Source of the DNA: Planctomycetota bacterium
GTDB lineage: Bacteria; Planctomycetota; UBA1135
Direction of reading: 5' to 3'
NCBI GenBank assembly: GCA_003696625.1
Contig: RFGR01000151.1
Location: forward strand, 929-64,928
Length of the DNA: 64,000 nt
Shown piece after piece: positions 3,971 through 62,274 of the stretch. How positions within the stretch are numbered: position 1 is the stretch's first letter; each line of letters begins with the position of its first letter. Made by a program: the position numbers and the translations under genes. Below the pieces are notes generated by a model, which was given only the letters and a program-made list of their open reading frames with translations, ran no database searches and had not been told where the DNA came from.

Positions 3971-3976
3971 TAGAAT
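3971..3976 (+). promoter_or_regulatory. Candidate -10 element TAGAAT, 9 nt upstream of the gltX ATG
   Basis: The sequence gccTAGAATcccgccgccATG has no SD-like purine run between the hexamer and the start. Confidence 0.45.
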
Positions 3977-6540: not shown

Positions 6541-6546
6541 ATTCTA
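6541..6546 (-). promoter_or_regulatory. Candidate -10 element TAGAAT (minus strand), 7 nt upstream of ATG 6533
   Basis: The minus strand reads ccgTAGAATcctggtcATG. Confidence 0.45.
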
Positions 6547-6623: not shown

Positions 6624-6629
6624 TAGAAT
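6624..6629 (+). promoter_or_regulatory. Candidate -10 element TAGAAT for tRNA-Met
   Basis: Exact TAGAAT 33 nt upstream of the tRNA 5' end. I see no convincing -35 element. Confidence 0.4.
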
Positions 6630-6793: not shown

Positions 6794-7087
6794 TCAGGAC
6801 TTCACGATCTCGGTCTCGAGGTCGGCGACGCCGGCGACCGAGTCCCAATTCGGCACAGGGGTGACCTGGATCCGACAAGCGCTGTCGCCGCAGTCCACCG
6901 GGTTGGAGACGGCCGGGGTGTTGCTCAGGTTCGGCTGCTGGGAGGTGCCGGCGGCCCCGTCGTGGAAGGTGATCGTGGCCGAACCGGACTCTCCCTGCGG
7001 CGGCCGGGCGAGGCGGAGGGAGAAGGTGACGGAGCAGCCCTGGCCGTCGGCGGTGAGTTCGGTGTAGTCGTCGAGTCGGTTCGGCAT
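6794..7087 (-). CDS. Hypothetical 97-aa protein
   Basis: ATG ORF MPNRLDDYTELTADGQGCSV...CGDSACRIQVTPVPNWDSVAGVADLETEIVKS with GC-rich third positions, three Cys and no signal peptide. It has its own upstream TAGAAT (7141-7136). I recognise no family. Confidence 0.5.
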   Translation of the reverse strand: MPNRLDDYTELTADGQGCSVTFSLRLARPPQGESGSATITFHDGAAGTSQQPNLSNTPAVSNPVDCGDSACRIQVTPVPNWDSVAGVADLETEIVKS

Positions 7088-7135
7088 GATGAGAGTCCTG
7101 GATTGGGAATCGCCCCGCCCGGGGCGGGCGAACCG

Positions 7136-7141
7136 ATTCTA
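7136..7141 (-). promoter_or_regulatory. Candidate -10 element TAGAAT (minus strand) upstream of the 97-aa ORF
   Basis: The minus strand reads ctcggcTAGAATcggtt, 13 nt after the stop of the sigma-fusion gene and 48 nt before ATG 7087. A GC hairpin (~7102-7121) lies in between. Confidence 0.4.
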
Positions 7142-7154
7142 GCCGAGCGACGGT

Positions 7155-10145
7155 TCAGGGACCGAGCTGGATCGGCGGCCAGATCCGCCGGCCGGAGGCG
7201 TCCTGGATCTCGAGCTGGACCGGCCCCGGCGGGACGTCCTCGAGCAGGAACTCGCCGGCGAAGAGGCGTCGACGGGAGGAGCGCCAGGCGAAGCCGCCGG
7301 GATCGTCGGTGCTGTAGACGAGACGAAACCCCTCCGGAAGCTGGAGGCCGGGCGGCACCGGAACCCGACAGCGGGCGCGGGCGGGCCGGGCATGGATCGG
7401 CGCGGCCTCGGCCAGGTCGAGAGGACCGGTCCAGGTGACCCAGCCGGCCGCGGCCAGGACGAGGCGGAGATCCGGTCGGTCCGGAACGTCCAGGAAGACG
7501 ATCCGGTCGACCTCGGACGGCCTCGTCCACGCCCGGCGAAGGAGCCGGCCGTCGGCGGCGAGGAGCAGGCCCTCGACCGGGCGGTCGGGGGTCGGCTCGC
7601 CGTTCGCGCCGGCGACCTCGACCGTGACGATCCGCCTCGGCGGCAGGTCCACGCGCACCTCGACCGCTTCCGCCGGGCAGGGCTGGCGGTGGATCGGGAC
7701 GCCGGCGGCATCGAGGACCCGAAGCTCGAGGGGCCCCTCCATCAAGTCGCCGAGGAGGAAGCGGCCGTCGGCTTCGATCGGTTCGGTGGCGAGACACTCG
7801 AGCCCGGCCGCCACGGTGCCGGCCGGTGCCCAGGCCTCGATCAGGTAGCGGCCGCGGACCGGGGGCCGCCCGTCGGGTTCGAGGACCTGGCCGGAGATCG
7901 AACGGTCGCCGAATCCGGTCGCGATCTCCAGGGAGAAGAGCCCCGCGGCCGGCGCGGTCCATTCCTGTTCGGTGACCGGTTCCGGCCGGATCGGGTCCTG
8001 GACCGAGTGCGGCGGGACGATCCGGAGCCGGAACCGGGAGCCGCCGGGCAGGGCGAGGGAGACCCGTCCGTCGGCGCCCGAAGTGCCGTGCAGGGCAGGC
8101 GGCCCCCACATCGTCCGGGCCTGAGCGAGGTCGTCCAGCGGCGGGGCGTCCACCACGATCGCGTGGACCTCGGCTCCCGCGAGCGGGTCGCCGCGTGCGT
8201 CCCGCAGGCCGACCTCGAGAGTGGCCGTCGGCGGCGGGGCGGTGTTCCAGATCGCCGGTCGACCGGCAGGAAGAGCGGCGAGCCGGAAGGGCAAGCGGCT
8301 TGCATCCGGATCCTGGTCCCGGCACAGCGTCGCCGTCAGGTCGCCCGGCCCCTCGTGCGGCAGCGGCAGATCGTAGATTCCGTCGGCGTCGGCGGAGAGT
8401 TCGAGGACGGGCGTCGGCCGCGTCTCCTCCGTGGGCTGGATCCCGCCGACGGCCGGGCGGTGGACCGGAAGGTGGAGTCGGAGGAAGGCCCGACTGCCGG
8501 GAGGATGCGGTGTGGAACCCTCCAGGCCTTGGATGAGCTGGACGTCCGCGAGGGCAAGCGGCACTCGCACCGGCGAACCGCTCGCGGTGGTCAGGTCGAG
8601 AAGGAGGGGGAACCGGCCAGGAGCCTGGATCAGGAGGAGGGGACGGTGGCTCGGATCGGGATTCGGGCAGTCCACGGCGCCGTTCGCTCCGACCGGAAGA
8701 TCGACCTGCCGCTCCTTCGGCCCGAGCCAGGTGACCGAGGCCGAGGGGAGCGGGGTCGAGCCGCCGGCCTCGACCAGCTCGAGCCGGAACCGGTCCGGGC
8801 CCGGCAGCACCGGGATCGAGGCGAAGAGGGGCGCCGTCGGGTCGAGGATCAGCCGGGGCTGCTCCTGGTTGGGCGGCTGTGGGATCCCGTGCAGGTCGGC
8901 GTCGAACACCTGGGGGAACCAGGGGGAGTCGGAGGGGAGCCAGATCGCCCCTCGCCCGGTGCGGTCGAGCGGCGCCGCGGCCCTGCGTTCGGAGGCTTCG
9001 AAGAACACCACCCAGCCGCCGGCGGCCGCCGGGGCGCCGGTCGGATCCAGGACCTGGAAGTCGAGCCGCGCGTCGCCGTGCCGGAACCGGAGATCGACCG
9101 CGGTGCCGGGAGTCTGCTCGCCGAGGTCGACCTGGAGGCCGCAGCCCCCGGGGGCGACCGCGTAGAGCTGGGTCTCGGCGGGGGGCCAGTGCCGAGGCAG
9201 CGTGATCGAGTAGCTCCCGCCCGAGGAGGCGGCTTCGATCCAGATCTCCTCGCCGTGGGTCGCCAGGACCGAGGCGTCCGGCACCGGGGCGCCGGCCTCG
9301 TCCAGGATCCGTCCGCTCCATCGCCACGGGTCCTCGCTCCGGCTGGAGCGAGGCGCGGCGGCGAAGGGCGCCTCGAGGAGCGCCCGGCCCTCCGGAGCGG
9401 CCGCGGACGCCGTGGGCTCCGGGGCGGGCGCGGCGGCGTCGATCGCCGCGGCCTCCTCCGGAGCCGGGGCGGGCTGGTCGGCGGCGGGCCGGAGGAGGGT
9501 CCAGGTCATCCCGAGCACCAGGACCGCGGCGGCGATCACCTCCGGCAGGGCCAGGAGCGGCAACGGACGCGGGAGCCGGAGACGGAAGGCGAACGCCAGT
9601 GCCGTCGGGTAGTCCGAACCGAGGTCTTCGTGGAGGAGCCGCCGCAGGCGGGCGAGCGCCCGCAGGATCTGCTTCCGAACCGTGCTGCGAGCGACGCCGA
9701 GGCTGGCGGCGATCGCCTCGAGGGAGCGGCGCTGGATGAACCGCTGGTCGAGGATTTGCTGGTCCTTTCGGGGGAGGCGCTCCATCGCCTCGGCCAGTCG
9801 CCGGATGGTCTCGATCCGCTGGGCCGTGGCGGCCGGGTCGGCCGACCGGGCGCGATCGGTGACCGCGGCTTCAAGCCGGCGGATCCGGCGGCGGGAGGCG
9901 CCCCGCCGGCGGAGCTGGTCGATCGCCAAGCTCACGACCGCCCGATAGAGGTAGGCGCGCGGCCGATCGCCCCGGGCGGGGGGCCTCTCGGCGAAGCGGG
10001 TGATGGCTTCCTGGGCGCAGTCTTCCGCCTCCGCCCAATCCCGGAGGATGGCGTGGGCGAGGCGGCACAATCCGTCGAAGAGGTCCGGAAAGTCCGCGAA
10101 ATCCGGGTGGGAGAAGACCGGGGCGGGCAAGGGCTCGGACGCCAT
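7155..10145 (-). CDS. ECF-type sigma-70 family domain fused to a transmembrane helix and a large CarboxypepD_reg-like repeat ectodomain
   Basis: 996 aa. The N-terminal ~180 aa carry sigma region 2 (DCAQEAITRF...YLYRAVVSLAIDQLRRR) and a region 4 HTH (RSLEAIAASLGVARSTVRKQILRALARLRRLL). A hydrophobic helix follows (LLALPEVIAAAVLVLGMTWTLL), then an Ala/Pro linker. The remaining ~750 aa contain repeated units such as ISGQVLEPDGRPPVRGRYLIEA...DGRFLLGDLMEGPLELRV. The start is uncertain, because a TAGAAT overlaps the annotated ATG. Confidence 0.8.
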   Translation of the reverse strand: MASEPLPAPVFSHPDFADFPDLFDGLCRLAHAILRDWAEAEDCAQEAITRFAERPPARGDRPRAYLYRAVVSLAIDQLRRRGASRRRIRRLEAAVTDRARSADPAATAQRIETIRRLAEAMERLPRKDQQILDQRFIQRRSLEAIAASLGVARSTVRKQILRALARLRRLLHEDLGSDYPTALAFAFRLRLPRPLPLLALPEVIAAAVLVLGMTWTLLRPAADQPAPAPEEAAAIDAAAPAPEPTASAAAPEGRALLEAPFAAAPRSSRSEDPWRWSGRILDEAGAPVPDASVLATHGEEIWIEAASSGGSYSITLPRHWPPAETQLYAVAPGGCGLQVDLGEQTPGTAVDLRFRHGDARLDFQVLDPTGAPAAAGGWVVFFEASERRAAAPLDRTGRGAIWLPSDSPWFPQVFDADLHGIPQPPNQEQPRLILDPTAPLFASIPVLPGPDRFRLELVEAGGSTPLPSASVTWLGPKERQVDLPVGANGAVDCPNPDPSHRPLLLIQAPGRFPLLLDLTTASGSPVRVPLALADVQLIQGLEGSTPHPPGSRAFLRLHLPVHRPAVGGIQPTEETRPTPVLELSADADGIYDLPLPHEGPGDLTATLCRDQDPDASRLPFRLAALPAGRPAIWNTAPPPTATLEVGLRDARGDPLAGAEVHAIVVDAPPLDDLAQARTMWGPPALHGTSGADGRVSLALPGGSRFRLRIVPPHSVQDPIRPEPVTEQEWTAPAAGLFSLEIATGFGDRSISGQVLEPDGRPPVRGRYLIEAWAPAGTVAAGLECLATEPIEADGRFLLGDLMEGPLELRVLDAAGVPIHRQPCPAEAVEVRVDLPPRRIVTVEVAGANGEPTPDRPVEGLLLAADGRLLRRAWTRPSEVDRIVFLDVPDRPDLRLVLAAAGWVTWTGPLDLAEAAPIHARPARARCRVPVPPGLQLPEGFRLVYSTDDPGGFAWRSSRRRLFAGEFLLEDVPPGPVQLEIQDASGRRIWPPIQLGP

Positions 10146-10250
10146 TCTAGGGGTGGAAGAGGGAAGCCGGAGACCTCAACGGAAGAGCGATGCCCCGCCG
10201 GGTTCGGGACAGAGATTTTTTCGGAGAACCTCGGTCGTTCCTGAAGAAAC

Positions 10251-10277
10251 CGGCCGCCCGGGAGGACCGGGCGGCCG
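10251..10277 (-). terminator. Rho-independent terminator of the 298-aa secreted-protein gene
   Basis: The minus strand reads CGGCCGCCCGG-tcctc-CCGGGCGGCCG (11-bp stem) followed by GTTTCTTC, about 20 nt after the stop codon. Confidence 0.7.
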
Positions 10278-10298
10278 AAAGCGGGGGGGGCGGGGACC

Positions 10299-11195
10299 TC
10301 AGCCGATGACGTTCGAGATCCCGTTCGTGAAGGTCAGCGAGCCGAGGTCGAAGGCGTGCTGCCAGACCATGATGCCGGTGGTTCCGGCCGGCACCCTCGC
10401 CGTCATGCTGCCGTTGCCGGCGGCGTCACAGGTGATCGCCGGCAATTCGCGGTACGGCGGGCTGAGCAGGAGCTGGCCGTAGGGGGTGTTCACCGGGCCG
10501 CCGCCGAACAGCGAGTAGCCGTGCCGGACGATGCCGTTCGGGGTGCAGTTCGAGACCGAGATCGTGGCGGTCTGCCCGGCGACCAGGTTGGACACCGAGA
10601 GGGTCGGACCGACCACCGTCTGTTCGACGTAGAGCTCCATCAGCACCCAGTTGCCGGCGGAGGTCGAGACGTCGATGTCGACCCGGTCGAAGGTGCCGCC
10701 GCTCATCTGGTAGAACTGCGCCCCGCACTGGGTGAAGGTCGAAGAAGTGTGGGTGTAGATCAGCGAGCCGCCGGAATAGAAGTTCAGGACGGCCGGGCCG
10801 ATCCAGTCGCCCAGCATCATGCCGAACTCGGTGCAGGGGCCGCCGAAGTCGATCGACACCAGCATGGCGTCGAAGGTGGCGAAGCCGGAATTGTCGATGA
10901 TGTAGGGGGTGGAGCCGCCGGTTCCCGGACCGGCCGCGAGCGCGTAGCCGCAGACCTGGGTGTTGTAGACGCCGGGGGCGCTGGTCGTCTTCGGGGACAT
11001 GGTCAGGGCCGCCATCGTGGCGCCGCCGTTGGTGCCGGCAGCGTTCAGCGCGGCGGTGTTGGTCGGACCGAGCGGCAGCAGGTCCATGTCGATGAACGAG
11101 TGCTGGACGGTCATGCCCGGAACCTCGGTCACCACCTGGGCGGTGGCGGGAGCGGCGAGGGCCAGGATCGGCAGAGCGAGGAGGAGGGATGTCAT
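10299..11195 (-). CDS. Secreted hypothetical protein (Thr/Ser/Gly/Asn-rich) with a C-terminal beta-sandwich-like module
   Basis: 298 aa with a clear signal peptide, MTSLLLALPILALAAPATAQ. It is noticeably less GC-rich than its neighbours (two lines I hand-counted gave 60% and 67%). The C-terminal ~100 aa (PTLSVSNLVAGQTATISV...TPYGQLLL...VPAGTTGIMVWQHAF...TNGISNVIG) resemble the C-terminus of the 2245-3909 protein. Confidence 0.7.
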   Translation of the reverse strand: MTSLLLALPILALAAPATAQVVTEVPGMTVQHSFIDMDLLPLGPTNTAALNAAGTNGGATMAALTMSPKTTSAPGVYNTQVCGYALAAGPGTGGSTPYIIDNSGFATFDAMLVSIDFGGPCTEFGMMLGDWIGPAVLNFYSGGSLIYTHTSSTFTQCGAQFYQMSGGTFDRVDIDVSTSAGNWVLMELYVEQTVVGPTLSVSNLVAGQTATISVSNCTPNGIVRHGYSLFGGGPVNTPYGQLLLSPPYRELPAITCDAAGNGSMTARVPAGTTGIMVWQHAFDLGSLTFTNGISNVIG

Positions 11196-11308
11196 CGGAG
11201 AGGTTCTCCAGTCAGGGTTGAAGGGAAGGCCGGGGCGTCGCCGGCGGCCGGAATGTCCGACTCCACTCTAGAACGGAGGCTCCGGATCCGGCAAGATCCG
11301 GGGCGGAG

Positions 11309-11692
11309 ATGATCGAGGTCTTCCCGAATCCGCATCCGGACCGGACCTATCTGGTCGAGTCGGTCGCCCCGGAGTTCACCTGCCTCTGTCCCCGTACGGG
11401 CCAGCCGGATTTCGCCACGATCCGGGTCCGCTACGCCCCGGGAAAATCCTGTTTCGAGTTGAAATCCTTCAAGCTTTTCCTCGGTTCCTTCCGGAACGAG
11501 GGGCACTTTCATGAAGACGTGACGAACCGGATCCTGGCCGAGCTGGTCGCGGCGGTGGACCCGGTCTGGATGGAGGTCCGCGGCGAGTTCCACGTCCGGG
11601 GCGGGATCGCCACCACCGTCACGGTCCGGCACGGGACCCTTCCCGCCGCCCTCGCGGGGGTGGAGCCGGCGGTCTGGCCCGGCCCGTCCTAG
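11309..11692 (+). CDS. queF: NADPH-dependent 7-cyano-7-deazaguanine (preQ0) reductase, type I
   Basis: 127 aa. The blocks EFTCLCPRTGQPDFATIRVRY, ELKSFKLFLGSFRNEGHFHE match the QueF catalytic Cys and QueF motif regions. Confidence 0.9.
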   Translation: MIEVFPNPHPDRTYLVESVAPEFTCLCPRTGQPDFATIRVRYAPGKSCFELKSFKLFLGSFRNEGHFHEDVTNRILAELVAAVDPVWMEVRGEFHVRGGIATTVTVRHGTLPAALAGVEPAVWPGPS

Positions 11693-17310: not shown

Positions 17311-17640
17311 TCAGTCCTTCCCGGCCGGGGCCAGCCGGACGGCGGTGCCGTAGGCGATCACCTCGGCGGCGTTGCGCATGACCTCGGCCGAGCTGAATCG
17401 GACCATGAGCACGGCGTCGGCGCCGAGGGCGACGGCCTGCTCGGTCATCCGATCGAGGGCCTGTTCCCGGGCCTCGGCCATGACCTTGGTGTACTCCTCG
17501 ATCTCGCCGCCGACCAGGTGGCGCAGGCCGGCGGTGATGTCGCGGCCGACGTGGCGGGCCCGCACGGTGTTGCCTCGGACCAACCCGAGCACCTCGACGA
17601 CCTGCCGGCCGGGGACGAAGTCGGTGGTGGAGAGAATCAT
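17311..17640 (-). CDS. YbjQ/UPF0145 family protein
   Basis: Start at ATG 17640 (ATGA overlap). The 109-aa product reads MILSTTDFVPGRQVVEVLGLVRGNTVRARHVGRDITAGLRHLVGGEIEEYT...GADAVLMVRF, a close match to the YbjQ family pattern. Confidence 0.85.
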   Translation of the reverse strand: MILSTTDFVPGRQVVEVLGLVRGNTVRARHVGRDITAGLRHLVGGEIEEYTKVMAEAREQALDRMTEQAVALGADAVLMVRFSSAEVMRNAAEVIAYGTAVRLAPAGKD

Positions 17641-18104
17641 CGGCGCACTTCGCGGTAGGGGTCGTGGCGGCGGACGCGGAGGCGTTCGAGCAGGATGCGC
17701 AGGAACAGCAGGCCGAGGCCGCCGAGCAGCGCCGCCACCGCCAGATGTTGCAGCAGCGGCCCTTCGTCGTCGAACATCTCCATCGCCGCGAAGACGGCCA
17801 GGATCAGGGCGCCGCCGACGAAGAGGGACCAGCCGGCGGTCTCGAGCAGGCGGGGGCCGAGGGCGCGACGCAGGGCTTCGCGCTCGAAGTCGGCCGGCTC
17901 GCGCAGCCGGGCGCAGGCGAAGGCCAGGCGCAGCCGCTCGAGTTCGGCCCATTCGCGGCTGCAGCGGGCGCAGCCCTGCAGGTGCTCGGCCAGCCAGCCC
18001 TCCTGGGCCGGGGTGCATTCCCCGTCGCTGCGGGCGTTCAGCCACAGGGAGACCTCTTCGCAGTTGCCGGGAGGCCAGGTCGGAAGGTCGGCGGGAGCAG
18101 TCAT
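17637..18104 (-). CDS. Membrane anti-sigma factor (zf-HC2 type)
   Basis: 155 aa. The HLQGCARC (H-x3-C-x2-C) zinc motif is followed by two hydrophobic helices. It is translationally coupled (ATGA) to the upstream ECF sigma gene. Confidence 0.75.
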   Translation of the reverse strand: MTAPADLPTWPPGNCEEVSLWLNARSDGECTPAQEGWLAEHLQGCARCSREWAELERLRLAFACARLREPADFEREALRRALGPRLLETAGWSLFVGGALILAVFAAMEMFDDEGPLLQHLAVAALLGGLGLLFLRILLERLRVRRHDPYREVRR

Positions 18105-18730
18105 GAGGCGGTGAGGTCGGGCAGCAGCTTGCGCAGCCGCCGGCGGGCGGTGCTGATCCGGGACATGACGGTGCCGACCGGGATGCCGAGGGCGTCGGCG
18201 ATCTCCCGGTAGCTCAGGCCGTCGAAGTGCTTGAGAAGGAGGATCTCGCGGTCTCCGGCCGGCAGGCGGGCGAGGGCGTCGCCGACCAGGCGGCTGCGCT
18301 CGTCGCGGGCGACGATCTCCTCCGGGGCCGGGGCCTGCGGGTCGGCCGGCTCCGGCAGCGGTTCGTCGTCCTGGTCCCGGGCCTGGAGCGAGCGGGAACG
18401 CCGGACCTTGCGCCGCCGGAGCTGCTGGATGCAGGCGTTGCGGAGGATGCGGTAGTACCAGGGGAAGAACGGGCGGCCGGGGACGAAGGTGTCGAGCGCC
18501 TGCCAGGCCTTGAGGCAGCTCTCCTGGACCAGGTCCTGGGCCTCGGTTCGGTTGCCGAGGATGCCGGTGGCCACCGCCAGCGCCCGCGGCTGGTGAAGCA
18601 GGGCCAGCTCGCCGAACGCCTCCCGGCTGCCCCGCAGGGCCGCCGCGAGGAGTTCCTGTTCGCGATCGCGCGCCGGCGCTTCGACGCTCATGGCGGCGGC
18701 TACGCCCGGGTCCGGCCGGGATTCAGCCAT
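18101..18730 (-). CDS. ECF (RpoE-like) RNA polymerase sigma factor
   Basis: 209 aa. Region 2 reads DLVQESCLKAWQAL...WYYRILRNACIQQLRRRK. Region 4 reads LLKHFDGLSYREIADALGIPVGTVMSRISTARRRL. Confidence 0.9.
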   Translation of the reverse strand: MAESRPDPGVAAAMSVEAPARDREQELLAAALRGSREAFGELALLHQPRALAVATGILGNRTEAQDLVQESCLKAWQALDTFVPGRPFFPWYYRILRNACIQQLRRRKVRRSRSLQARDQDDEPLPEPADPQAPAPEEIVARDERSRLVGDALARLPAGDREILLLKHFDGLSYREIADALGIPVGTVMSRISTARRRLRKLLPDLTAS

Positions 18731-21227: not shown

Positions 21228-21932
21228 ATGGCGGCGACCACGCGACGACAGGCGGCCGTCGAAGCCGAGCGGGTGCAGGTGGAAACCCTGCTCAAGGCCG
21301 ACCTTTTCGGCCGCGTGGAGCGCGGGCATTCTAGCCGGCTCGGCCCCGTCGTCCGCCGCGACACTCGGGCCGCCCGCTGGTGGCTGCGGCCGCTGGCCCG
21401 TCGGCTGGCCCGGCGCGAGGCGGCGGCCCTGGCGGCGCTCGAAGGGTTGCCCGGGGTGCCGCGGCTGCTTTCCTGGGACGGCCGGGTCCTGCTCCGGACC
21501 TGGCTCGAGGGCCGGCCGCTGCACCGCGGCGGACCGCCGGACCCGGACTGGTTCGAGGCGGCCCGCCGGCTGGTCTGCCGGCTCCATCGACGCGGGGTCT
21601 GCCACAACGACCTGGCCAAGGAACCGAACCTGCTCGTGGCGGCGGACGGCCGTCCGGCCCTGATCGATTTCCAGCTCGCGCGGGTGACCCGGCGGCGGAG
21701 TCGCTGGTTCCGGCTCCAGGCGCGGGAGGACCTGCGCCACCTCCTGAAGCACAAGCGGAGCTACGCGCCGGCCCGGCTGCGGCCGCGGGAGCGGCGGATC
21801 CTGGCCCGGCCGTCCTGGCCGGCGCGGCTCTGGCGGCGCAGCGGCAAGCGCCTCTACTTGGCCGTGACCCGCGGACTCCTGGGCTGGGCCGACCGCGAGG
21901 GCGCCGGCGACCGGGGCGGGACCGGCGCCTGA
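21228..21932 (+). CDS. Small protein-kinase-like fold protein (RIO/Kdo-kinase-like)
   Basis: 234 aa. LHRRGVCHNDLAKEPNLLV is an HxDLxxxN catalytic loop, and ALIDFQLA occupies the DFG position. The C-terminal tail is basic. Confidence 0.65.
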   Translation: MAATTRRQAAVEAERVQVETLLKADLFGRVERGHSSRLGPVVRRDTRAARWWLRPLARRLARREAAALAALEGLPGVPRLLSWDGRVLLRTWLEGRPLHRGGPPDPDWFEAARRLVCRLHRRGVCHNDLAKEPNLLVAADGRPALIDFQLARVTRRRSRWFRLQAREDLRHLLKHKRSYAPARLRPRERRILARPSWPARLWRRSGKRLYLAVTRGLLGWADREGAGDRGGTGA

Positions 21933-35839: not shown

Positions 35840-35845
35840 ATTCTA
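35840..35845 (-). promoter_or_regulatory. Candidate -10 element TAGAAT (minus strand), 9 nt upstream of ATG 35830
   Basis: The minus strand reads atggcTAGAATcggccggtcATG. It lies in the 18-nt gap between two divergent start codons. Confidence 0.45.
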
Positions 35846-52642: not shown

Positions 52643-52648
52643 ATTCTA
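52643..52648 (-). promoter_or_regulatory. Candidate -10 element TAGAAT (minus strand) upstream of the PFOR genes
   Basis: The minus strand reads ttccccTAGAATgggatggg, 50 nt upstream of ATG 52592 and 10 nt after the stop of the AceE-like gene. Confidence 0.4.
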
Positions 52649-62268: not shown

Positions 62269-62274
62269 TAGAAT
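62269..62274 (+). promoter_or_regulatory. Candidate -10 element TAGAAT, 7 nt upstream of the trp leader ATG
   Basis: The sequence gccTTAGAATccccggcATG lies immediately after the cytochrome terminator. Confidence 0.5.

Follow-up and report, generated by a model that had tools for sequence, protein, structure and literature searches.

A 996-amino-acid (aa) protein encoded on the minus strand of a 64,000-nt stretch of Planctomycetota DNA (contig RFGR01000151.1 of assembly GCA_003696625.1, positions 929 to 64,928; hereafter the window) combines an extracytoplasmic function (ECF) sigma factor, a single transmembrane helix, and a large beta-sandwich ectodomain in one polypeptide chain. This architecture, which a preliminary description made from the sequence had proposed, is borne out by Pfam and TIGR02937 matches, hydropathy, an AlphaFold2 model, and Foldseek comparisons. 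By analogy with known systems, we interpret the protein as a one-component, membrane-tethered ECF sigma factor that would be released by regulated proteolysis after sensing by its ectodomain, a reading to which we assign a probability of about 0.5.

ECF sigma factors with built-in regulatory extensions are recognized as one-component systems of sigma signalling, and the concept of a membrane-spanning one-component ECF sigma factor is already established. To our knowledge, almost no membrane-crossing extended ECF sigma factor has been studied, and those of Planctomycetes are experimentally untouched. What is new here is that the sigma factor is tethered directly, without an anti-sigma domain, that its ectodomain is a string of the CarboxypepD_reg type, and that the sigma protein and a 97-aa partner have both diverged rapidly, in step, while the secreted protein encoded next to them is invariant. 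The class-level idea is unsurprising to a specialist; the locus represents a well-defined, testable case with an unusual evolutionary pattern. The gene and its product are divided as follows:

7155..10145, minus strand: whole gene for the 996-aa ECF sigma / transmembrane helix / beta-sandwich ectodomain protein (from the list of open reading frames, ORFs)
9852..10088, minus strand: sigma region 2, aa ~20–98 (Pfam Sigma70_r2; helices in AlphaFold2)
9630..9836, minus strand: sigma region 4 helix-turn-helix, aa ~104–172 (Pfam Sigma70_r4 and r4_2; TIGR02937)
9561..9629, minus strand: juxtamembrane motif LGxx(W/Y)xxxLxxAF(G/R)LxLP, aa ~173–195 (alignment of five syntenic homologues)
9492..9560, minus strand: single transmembrane helix, aa ~196–218, Ala/Gly/Pro-rich (Kyte-Doolittle; AlphaFold2)
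9330..9491, minus strand: disordered Ala/Pro/Glu-rich linker, aa ~219–272, ~55 residues (predicted local distance difference test, pLDDT, 30–36; no secondary structure)
7158..9329, minus strand: extracytoplasmic region of about eight beta-sandwich units, aa 273–996 (AlphaFold2, Foldseek, hhalign, motif counts)
9195..9317, minus strand: sole stretch above the Pfam CarboxypepD_reg gathering score, aa 277–317
7155–7157, minus strand: stop codon

Domain architecture of the tethered sigma factor

The window protein is identical to P0001, which carries the automatically assigned NCBI name 'MAG: sigma-70 family RNA polymerase sigma factor [Planctomycetota bacterium]'. Its N-terminal part scored above the Pfam cut-offs for Sigma70_r2 (aa 26–82, 40.2 bits versus 24), Sigma70_r4 (aa 115–168, 36.9 versus 24.1 bits), and Sigma70_r4_2 (aa 115–168, 34.3 versus 25.7 bits), and the NCBIfam model TIGR02937 (sigma70-ECF) spans aa 26–170 with 75.7 bits (cut-off 42.9). 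Pfam gave no match to Sigma70_r3 or r1, and the linker between the sigma2 and sigma4 domains comprises ~20–30 residues according to Pfam and AlphaFold2. Regions 2 and 4 above threshold, a short linker, and the lack of regions 1.1 and 3 identify an ECF (group 4) member of the sigma-70 family. Region 2 carries the canonical motifs AEDCAQEA and YLYRAVVSLAIDQLRRR and resembles Mycobacterium tuberculosis SigL and Bacillus subtilis SigW in the PDB. The motifs of regions 2.2, 2.4, and 4.2 are canonical, and the Arg and Leu positions of region 4 are invariant in five of five homologues. All NCBIfam models of sigma sub-families, e.g., Sig-70_plancto1 (38 versus 184) and Sig-70_gvs1 (36 versus 125), remained far under their cut-offs, and the nearest sigma cores found belong to ordinary ECF sigma factors of ~197 aa with 35–37% identity.

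The sole hydrophobic segment of the protein (aa 193–221) reaches a 19-residue Kyte-Doolittle mean of 2.2, compared to 1.18 for the runner-up, and appears as a helix at aa 197–217 in the AlphaFold2 model. An Arg-rich flank precedes and an acidic flank follows this helix, which fits an N-in/C-out topology. All 14 proteins with this architecture have a dominant hydrophobic segment at the equivalent position, accompanied in three of them by one further, minor segment; in all homologues, Pro, Gly, and Ala are abundant in the helix. The protein thus probably has the single N-in, type II helix with small or helix-destabilizing residues that characterizes substrates of regulated intramembrane proteolysis.

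As the preliminary description had remarked, no recognizable anti-sigma gene adjoins the sigma gene. Nor is such a domain found inside the protein, which has no zf-HC2, FecR, or anti-sigma match in Pfam; in the alignment of homologues, region 4 and the helix are separated by ~20 residues that contain no anti-sigma domain and no Cys/His pattern. This juxtamembrane stretch is too short for an anti-sigma domain. Because none lies between region 4 and the helix, we read the protein as a directly tethered sigma factor, unlike IutY or ECF52.

With its sigma core unmasked by any anti-sigma domain, the protein might also be active while tethered, in the manner of ToxR, CadC, or TcpP, bringing core RNA polymerase to membrane-near promoters, with its ectodomain modulating activity through oligomerization or conformation and without proteolysis. 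The conserved juxtamembrane motif and the G/A/S-rich helix, whose G-x-x-W pattern could mediate dimerization, are compatible with this mode, and the likely targets adjoin the sigma gene. However, the ~20 residues from region 4 to the bilayer leave little room for a holoenzyme, and no sigma factor is known to work as an integral membrane protein, nor is one found in two reviews (PMC7826278, PMC8999054); activity in the tethered state seems unlikely to us.

The AlphaFold2 model, built from an 11-sequence alignment (mean pLDDT 69.8), shows a helical sigma core (aa 19–187), an unstructured Ala/Pro-rich stretch (aa 218–272), and strands only from aa 274 to 996, where about eight units are modeled mostly with a pLDDT of 70–90. 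Such a string could extend roughly 30 nm. Foldseek searches of the PDB matched the ectodomain to strings of Ig/prealbumin-like domains, with a Bacillus anthracis TIE protein at 4e-11, as well as to the MG domains of alpha-2-macroglobulin and to CnaB-type pilins. Pfam recognized one partial CarboxypepD_reg unit (PF13620; aa 277–317, 36.6 versus 32.3 bits). The repeat motifs listed in the preliminary description occur two to four times in the ectodomain compared to about 0.3–0.55 times in shuffled sequences, and profile-profile comparison with hhalign linked units D1, D2, D4, D5, and D6 (E-values of 6e-7 to 3e-4; probabilities of 57–92% for most pairs and 39% for D5-D6), leaving D3, D7, and D8 without a link to other units. 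The repeated CarboxypepD_reg-like units described earlier thus hold for five of the eight, one of them above the Pfam cut-off, and not for the remaining three: judged from these profiles, about five of the eight units are demonstrably one repeat family, CarboxypepD_reg-like and degenerate.

Since the Foldseek matches are adhesins, pilins, and surface proteins, one could argue that the sigma domain is transcriptionally dead and is kept as the cytoplasmic anchor of a surface stalk or adhesin. Its unusually high divergence (27–33% identity between lineages versus 62–83% for flanking genes) points in the same direction. Against this stand the scores of both sigma domains above curated cut-offs and the canonical region 2.2, 2.4, and 4.2 motifs, with the Arg/Leu positions of region 4 unchanged in five homologues, and we consider a dead sigma domain very improbable.

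Recurrence and divergence in a conserved slot

When 1.84 billion representatives were searched exhaustively by phmmer with the ectodomain as query, only two true homologues were recovered, P0016 (1005 aa, E = 1e-31) and P0017 (1022 aa, E = 1e-28), both collinear with the window protein from end to end and with the same sigma/helix/ectodomain layout. Locus analysis added an 822-aa paralogue beside P0017 and a 974-aa homologue in a fourth lineage; the close family consists of five collinear homologues in four syntenic Planctomycetota lineages. Scans anchored on the 298-aa secreted protein encoded next to the sigma gene (see below) retrieved three genome loci and one metagenome locus, all in lineages already seen.

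More distant relatives came from word-indexed searches, which yielded no closer family members: at least nine proteins of 799–1269 aa from metagenomes or metagenome-assembled genomes (P0002, P0003, P0004, P0021, P0022, P0023, P0024, P0026, and P0027) consist of a sigma core followed by a single dominant hydrophobic segment and an extended C-terminal part, which contains CarboxypepD_reg repeats in all but P0024 (8/9). On the three contigs examined, the genes for P0002, P0021, and P0023 are solitary, having neither an adjacent anti-sigma gene nor conserved neighbours. P0003 (799 aa) ends in a PDZ domain and P0026 (1269 aa) in an AhpC/TSA thioredoxin-like domain; these two cases suggest that different sensor modules can be mounted at the distal end of the beta-sandwich string. 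The architecture is real and recurrent, the close family is tiny, and none of the distant proteins is characterized. Among the papers searched, none links CarboxypepD_reg to a sigma factor, which agrees with the earlier remark that no characterized member with such an ectodomain is known. The scattered sigma/helix/CarboxypepD_reg class, including its PDZ- or thioredoxin-like-ended members, could now be defined and classified.

A frameshift or mis-assembly joining a sigma gene to a surface-protein gene would be a trivial explanation of the fusion. The G+C content at third codon positions (GC3) is 0.82–0.95 in each 100-codon block of the sigma ORF, in frame throughout, and the same continuous fusion recurs in the four syntenic lineages and in independent assemblies from ENA, JGI, and NCBI, with P0017 present exactly on 17 contigs. 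We therefore reject an artefact, to which we give practically no chance. None of the three outcomes that the preliminary description had named as refuting its proposal was observed: frameshift is excluded, a transmembrane segment is predicted, and the N-terminal part passes the sigma cut-offs.

The sigma gene belongs to a set of three genes, which in the window is bounded by a tRNA gene:

10299..11195, minus strand: 298-aa secreted partner gene, with signal peptide and no Pfam family
6794..7087, minus strand: 97-aa partner gene, with homologues beside the sigma gene in L001/L006, L003/L008, and L007
6663..6739, plus strand: tRNA-Met(CAT), which bounds the three-gene set and is convergent with the 97-aa gene

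Both flanking genes had been taken for orphans, but homologues of the two accompany the sigma gene in all four lineages. The 97-aa gene has a GC3 of 0.91, and its product lacks a signal peptide, has no family match in Pfam, NCBIfam, or PADLOC, and is all-beta in a single-sequence AlphaFold2 model of low confidence (pLDDT 50); Cys18 and Cys66 are kept in two of three relatives. The 298-aa gene has a G+C content of 0.66–0.67, lower than its surroundings. The only domain similarity of its product is weak and below threshold, to an exosortase-dependent surface-protein domain.

In the window and on the P0016 and P0017 contigs, a conserved series of genes is found in the order SQHop-cyclase, FAA hydrolase, signal peptidase S26, GT2, LAB_N, Kdo, methyltransferase, and QueF; on the P0016 and P0017 contigs, QueF is followed by a 299-aa protein without Pfam match and then by the sigma gene(s) and a ~97-aa protein. 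Within the set, gene order differs in every lineage (numbers are protein lengths in aa; arrows give direction):

Window: 298 -> sigma -> 97 -> tRNA-Met
L001 / L006: 299 -> 97 -> sigma
L003 / L008: 299 -> sigma1 -> 78 -> 96 -> sigma2 -> secreted C39-like peptidase -> HTH_17 -> DndB
L007: tRNA-Met … 300 -> <- sigma <- 97, then QueF

In L001, L003, and L007 a sigma gene directly follows the 97-aa gene, and in the window the order is reversed, the 97-aa gene coming directly after the sigma gene. In the window and in L007 the set is located between queF and tRNA-Met, and the two tRNAs agree at 75 of 77 bases. As stated in the preliminary description, there is no integrase at the locus and no copy of the tRNA-Met 3′ end. 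Its conclusion that the locus looks accessory did not hold up: the sigma gene has native composition (G+C content 0.74–0.76 versus 0.728 for the window) and lies in a conserved syntenic block. We rejected a tRNA-associated genomic island, given the lack of an att-like repeat, this native composition, and the synteny conserved in four lineages, and the locus is better described as a rearranging, hypervariable module in a fixed slot.

Sequence identities (protein level) between lineages differ strongly among the genes of this slot:

Window versus L001 / L003: flanking proteins 62–83%, 298-aa protein 73–75%, sigma protein 28–29%, 97-aa protein 33%
L001 versus L003: flanking proteins 65–89%, 298-aa protein 83%, sigma protein 43%, 97-aa protein 29%

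Over all lineages, the sigma protein of the window is 27–33% and the 97-aa protein ~30–33% identical to its counterparts, whereas the 298-aa protein, by far the best conserved of the set, is 69–75% identical. The divergence is even along the sigma protein (window versus others: sigma2 29%, sigma4 30%, units D1–D8 22–35%), and the alignment retains 64 invariant positions, mostly Gly, Pro, Leu, Asp, and Arg. The pairs available for comparison are about 100% identical or do not exceed 43% identity. Because the databases hold no closer paralogue, this pattern indicates accelerated divergence of a syntenic gene and not replacement by a paralogue. By these sequence comparisons, the sigma and 97-aa proteins are hypervariable amid conserved surroundings. 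The slot thereby offers a natural experiment, in which a receptor and its small partner are ~30% identical across four lineages while their neighbours are about 75% identical, and lets one ask what drives the diversification of signalling receptors.

The 97-aa protein is probably a specific partner of the sigma protein, since it diverges as fast. It could even be the regulator proper, i.e., a novel, non-helical cytoplasmic anti-sigma factor or co-factor that co-evolves with the sigma factor, leaving the ectodomain mainly as a stalk or adhesin and not as a sensor. Its gene is strictly linked to the sigma gene, the lack of a signal peptide places the product in the same compartment as the sigma domain, and its divergence (about 30% identity) is like that of the sigma domain (27–33%). 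Yet the model, albeit of low confidence (pLDDT 50), predicts an all-beta fold, which no known anti-sigma domain has; moreover, the 97-aa protein matches no family, and it is absent beside the three distant proteins with examined contigs. We regard this possibility, which is compatible with proteolysis, as doubtful. A further and rather improbable view is that the tethered sigma factor and the 97-aa protein are a pair whose specificity diversifies rapidly and jointly in the conserved slot, the hypervariable stalk recognizing a fast-evolving external partner and thereby releasing the sigma factor. Such a partner would be, e.g., a surface protein of a phage or competitor, or a self signal specific to the strain, and the 298-aa protein would be a common output or co-receptor.

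Transcription signals and proposed mode of action

At the three genes we identified the following signals:

10250..10278, minus strand: strong intrinsic terminator of the 298-aa gene, separating it from the sigma gene
10144..10149, minus strand: TAGAAT −10-like box overlapping the annotated sigma ATG
10128–10130, minus strand: TTG (codon 6), alternative start of the sigma gene
7136..7141, minus strand: TAGAAT −10-like box 48 nt upstream of the 97-aa gene

The terminator hairpin is also found in L001 and L003, and a TAGAGT variant of the −10-like box lies upstream of the 298-aa gene. In the window, TAGAAT occurs 10 times compared to 1.35 expected occurrences; the other sites are at 3971–3976, 6541–6546, 35840–35845, 62269–62274, 369–374, 6624–6629, 21328–21333, and 52643–52648. 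In at least four cases it is located 7–9 nt ahead of an ATG, three of which open long ORFs of high GC3. Such ORFs include gltX, a gene for a 363-aa thioredoxin-like protein, and, at 35.8 kb, one of 311 aa; TAGAAT also precedes tRNA-Met. Because of this over-representation and spacing, we take TAGAAT to be the general −10 element of the organism, many mRNAs of which are probably leaderless. For the same reason we rejected CTAGAAT, which is shared by upstream regions, as an ECF promoter.

Since TAGAAT overlaps the annotated ATG, transcription would begin past it, so that TTG at codon 6 becomes the first available start (991 aa). The preliminary description had pointed to this overlap and to a start some codons downstream; the TTG is a plausible start and leaves the architecture unaffected. 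The boxes suggest that the three genes have housekeeping-type promoters and are transcribed constitutively. A GC-rich hairpin, CCCGCCCCGGGCGGGG, is located at 7088–7135 (minus strand) between the TAGAAT box and the 97-aa ATG, in the predicted 5′ leader; as it lacks a T-tract, it is probably not a terminator, and it may have a regulatory role.

In the mechanism that we favor, sigma expression would be constitutive, as assumed from the housekeeping-type −10 box, and control post-translational. As the sigma factor is tethered without an anti-sigma domain, tethering itself would have to be the off-state, in which the sigma factor is kept from productive use; this makes the locus a clean case. The beta-sandwich string would sense an extracytoplasmic event, such as envelope damage or the binding of a protein or glycan, upon which the ectodomain would be cleaved or shed (site 1). 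An RseP-type site-2 protease would then cut the small-residue-rich helix and yield a soluble ECF sigma factor, whose lifetime may be limited by the short hydrophobic tail left on it. The likeliest targets would be the linked 97-aa gene and possibly the gene for the 298-aa secreted protein; the 97-aa protein may be a sigma-binding regulator or the cognate output of the system. If proteolysis is indeed involved, the released sigma factor could be used as a compact orthogonal switch in synthetic biology.

Several points weigh against release by proteolysis as proposed here. The cleavage site, the protease, and the regulon are all putative, and the proteolysis step is drawn from analogy. No conserved patch marks a ligand site in the ectodomain, where the invariant Gly, Pro, Leu, and Asp residues are typical of the fold. 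The preliminary description had recommended looking for an ECF-type promoter shared by the 97-aa and 298-aa genes; when the sequences preceding these two genes and the sigma gene were compared for the window, L001, L003, and L007, no conserved ECF-type −35/−10 pair was common to them. The housekeeping-type −10 boxes at the 97-aa and 298-aa genes moreover argue that dependence on the tethered sigma factor is unnecessary, and the 97-aa partner does not accompany the distant members P0002, P0021, and P0023.

The analogy draws on several well-described systems. In IutY of Pseudomonas putida (ECF243), a cytoplasmic ECF sigma factor, one helix, and a periplasmic domain are likewise joined in one polypeptide (PMC8999054). 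However, IutY has a FecR-type anti-sigma domain before the helix and takes part in TonB-dependent cell-surface signalling, whereas protein and locus in the window lack an anti-sigma domain, FecR, and a TonB receptor. ECF48, ECF52, and ECF53 of Actinobacteria (e.g., SCO4117) share the ECF core, the helix, an extracytoplasmic Pro-rich linker followed by a further domain, and proposed proteolysis. In these proteins, however, the helix is preceded by an anti-sigma domain of the zinc-finger (ZAS) type and the outer domain binds carbohydrate, whereas the window protein has no ZAS and carries a beta-sandwich string outside. Neither a FecR-type domain nor a ZAS HxxxCxxC motif, which define sigma/anti-sigma fusions, precedes its helix. 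IutY is released by Prc and RseP, and the same is predicted for ECF48/52/53 (PMC8999054).

In RpoE/RseA, SigW/RsiW, and DdvS/DdvA, too, an extracytoplasmic sensor controls through a single helix whether sigma factor is available, and release depends on RseP, which processes even anti-sigma factors with very large periplasmic domains, e.g., DdvA (PMC11506125). In contrast to the window protein, these are two-protein systems, in which the anti-sigma factor masks the sigma factor. The window contains a pair of that type (17637–18730), consisting, as described previously, of an ECF sigma factor (18101–18730, 209 aa) and its zf-HC2 anti-sigma partner (17637–18104, 155 aa). Pro-sigma-K of Bacillus subtilis is similar in that the sigma factor itself is the substrate of a site-2 protease, SpoIVFB; it has a short N-terminal pro-sequence and belongs to group 3, whereas the window protein is an ECF sigma factor with a C-terminal helix and ectodomain.

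Regulation by a C-terminal extension ranks second in frequency among the regulatory types of ECF sigma factors and is found in 19 groups (PMC7826278). Planctomycetes encode many ECF sigma factors whose extensions are long and poorly conserved (PMC7671368), ECF57 being present in several copies per genome. The window protein resembles these planctomycetal factors (ECF57, formerly ECF01-Gob, and the clusters of PMC7671368) in its phylum, its fast-diverging C-terminal extension, and the lack of an anti-sigma factor, the extension having been proposed to regulate the sigma factor. ECF57 has WD40-like repeats, whereas the window protein has no WD40 match in Pfam and is modeled as beta-sandwiches and not as a propeller. 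Moreover, ECF57 has two conserved cysteines linking sigma2 and sigma4 (PMC8999054), while Cys27 and Cys43 of the window protein both lie in sigma2 and neither is conserved in the four syntenic homologues. In the published duplicated clusters, sigma2 and sigma4 are highly conserved and the extensions are of differing origin (PMC7671368); in the lineages studied here, by contrast, the extension is collinear and homologous throughout, and the sigma core diverges as well.

Additional features of the slot and its surroundings

One lineage harbors a second, shorter sigma/helix/ectodomain paralogue of 822 aa (L003 11967–15259, likewise in L004, L005, and L008), which is preceded by a 96-aa gene of its own. 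It is followed by a gene for a 243-aa Peptidase_C39_2/C70-like cysteine protease with an N-terminal signal or transmembrane segment, a candidate site-1 protease. Beyond this gene, HTH_17 and DndB genes in L003 look like island or defence content; PADLOC gave no defence-system match for the sigma, 97-aa, 298-aa, or C39-like proteins. Between the two sigma genes of L003, a 78-aa ORF (11223–11459) shares 42% identity over 50 residues with aa 570–618 of the sigma1 ectodomain and is probably a duplication remnant.

A perfect 17-nt inverted repeat surrounds the sigma gene of the window, with one arm in the 3′ end of the 97-aa gene (6803–6819) and the other inside the 298-aa gene (10550–10566). It is of interest given the differences in gene order and orientation between lineages, and may be a coincidence, with a rough chance estimate of about 0.01–0.02 for the 4.8-kb region. 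Outside the slot, the classical ECF/zf-HC2 pair adjoins a YbjQ_1 gene (17311–18730, minus strand), and the YbjQ gene and the following block from SQHop-cyclase to QueF are syntenic with L003.

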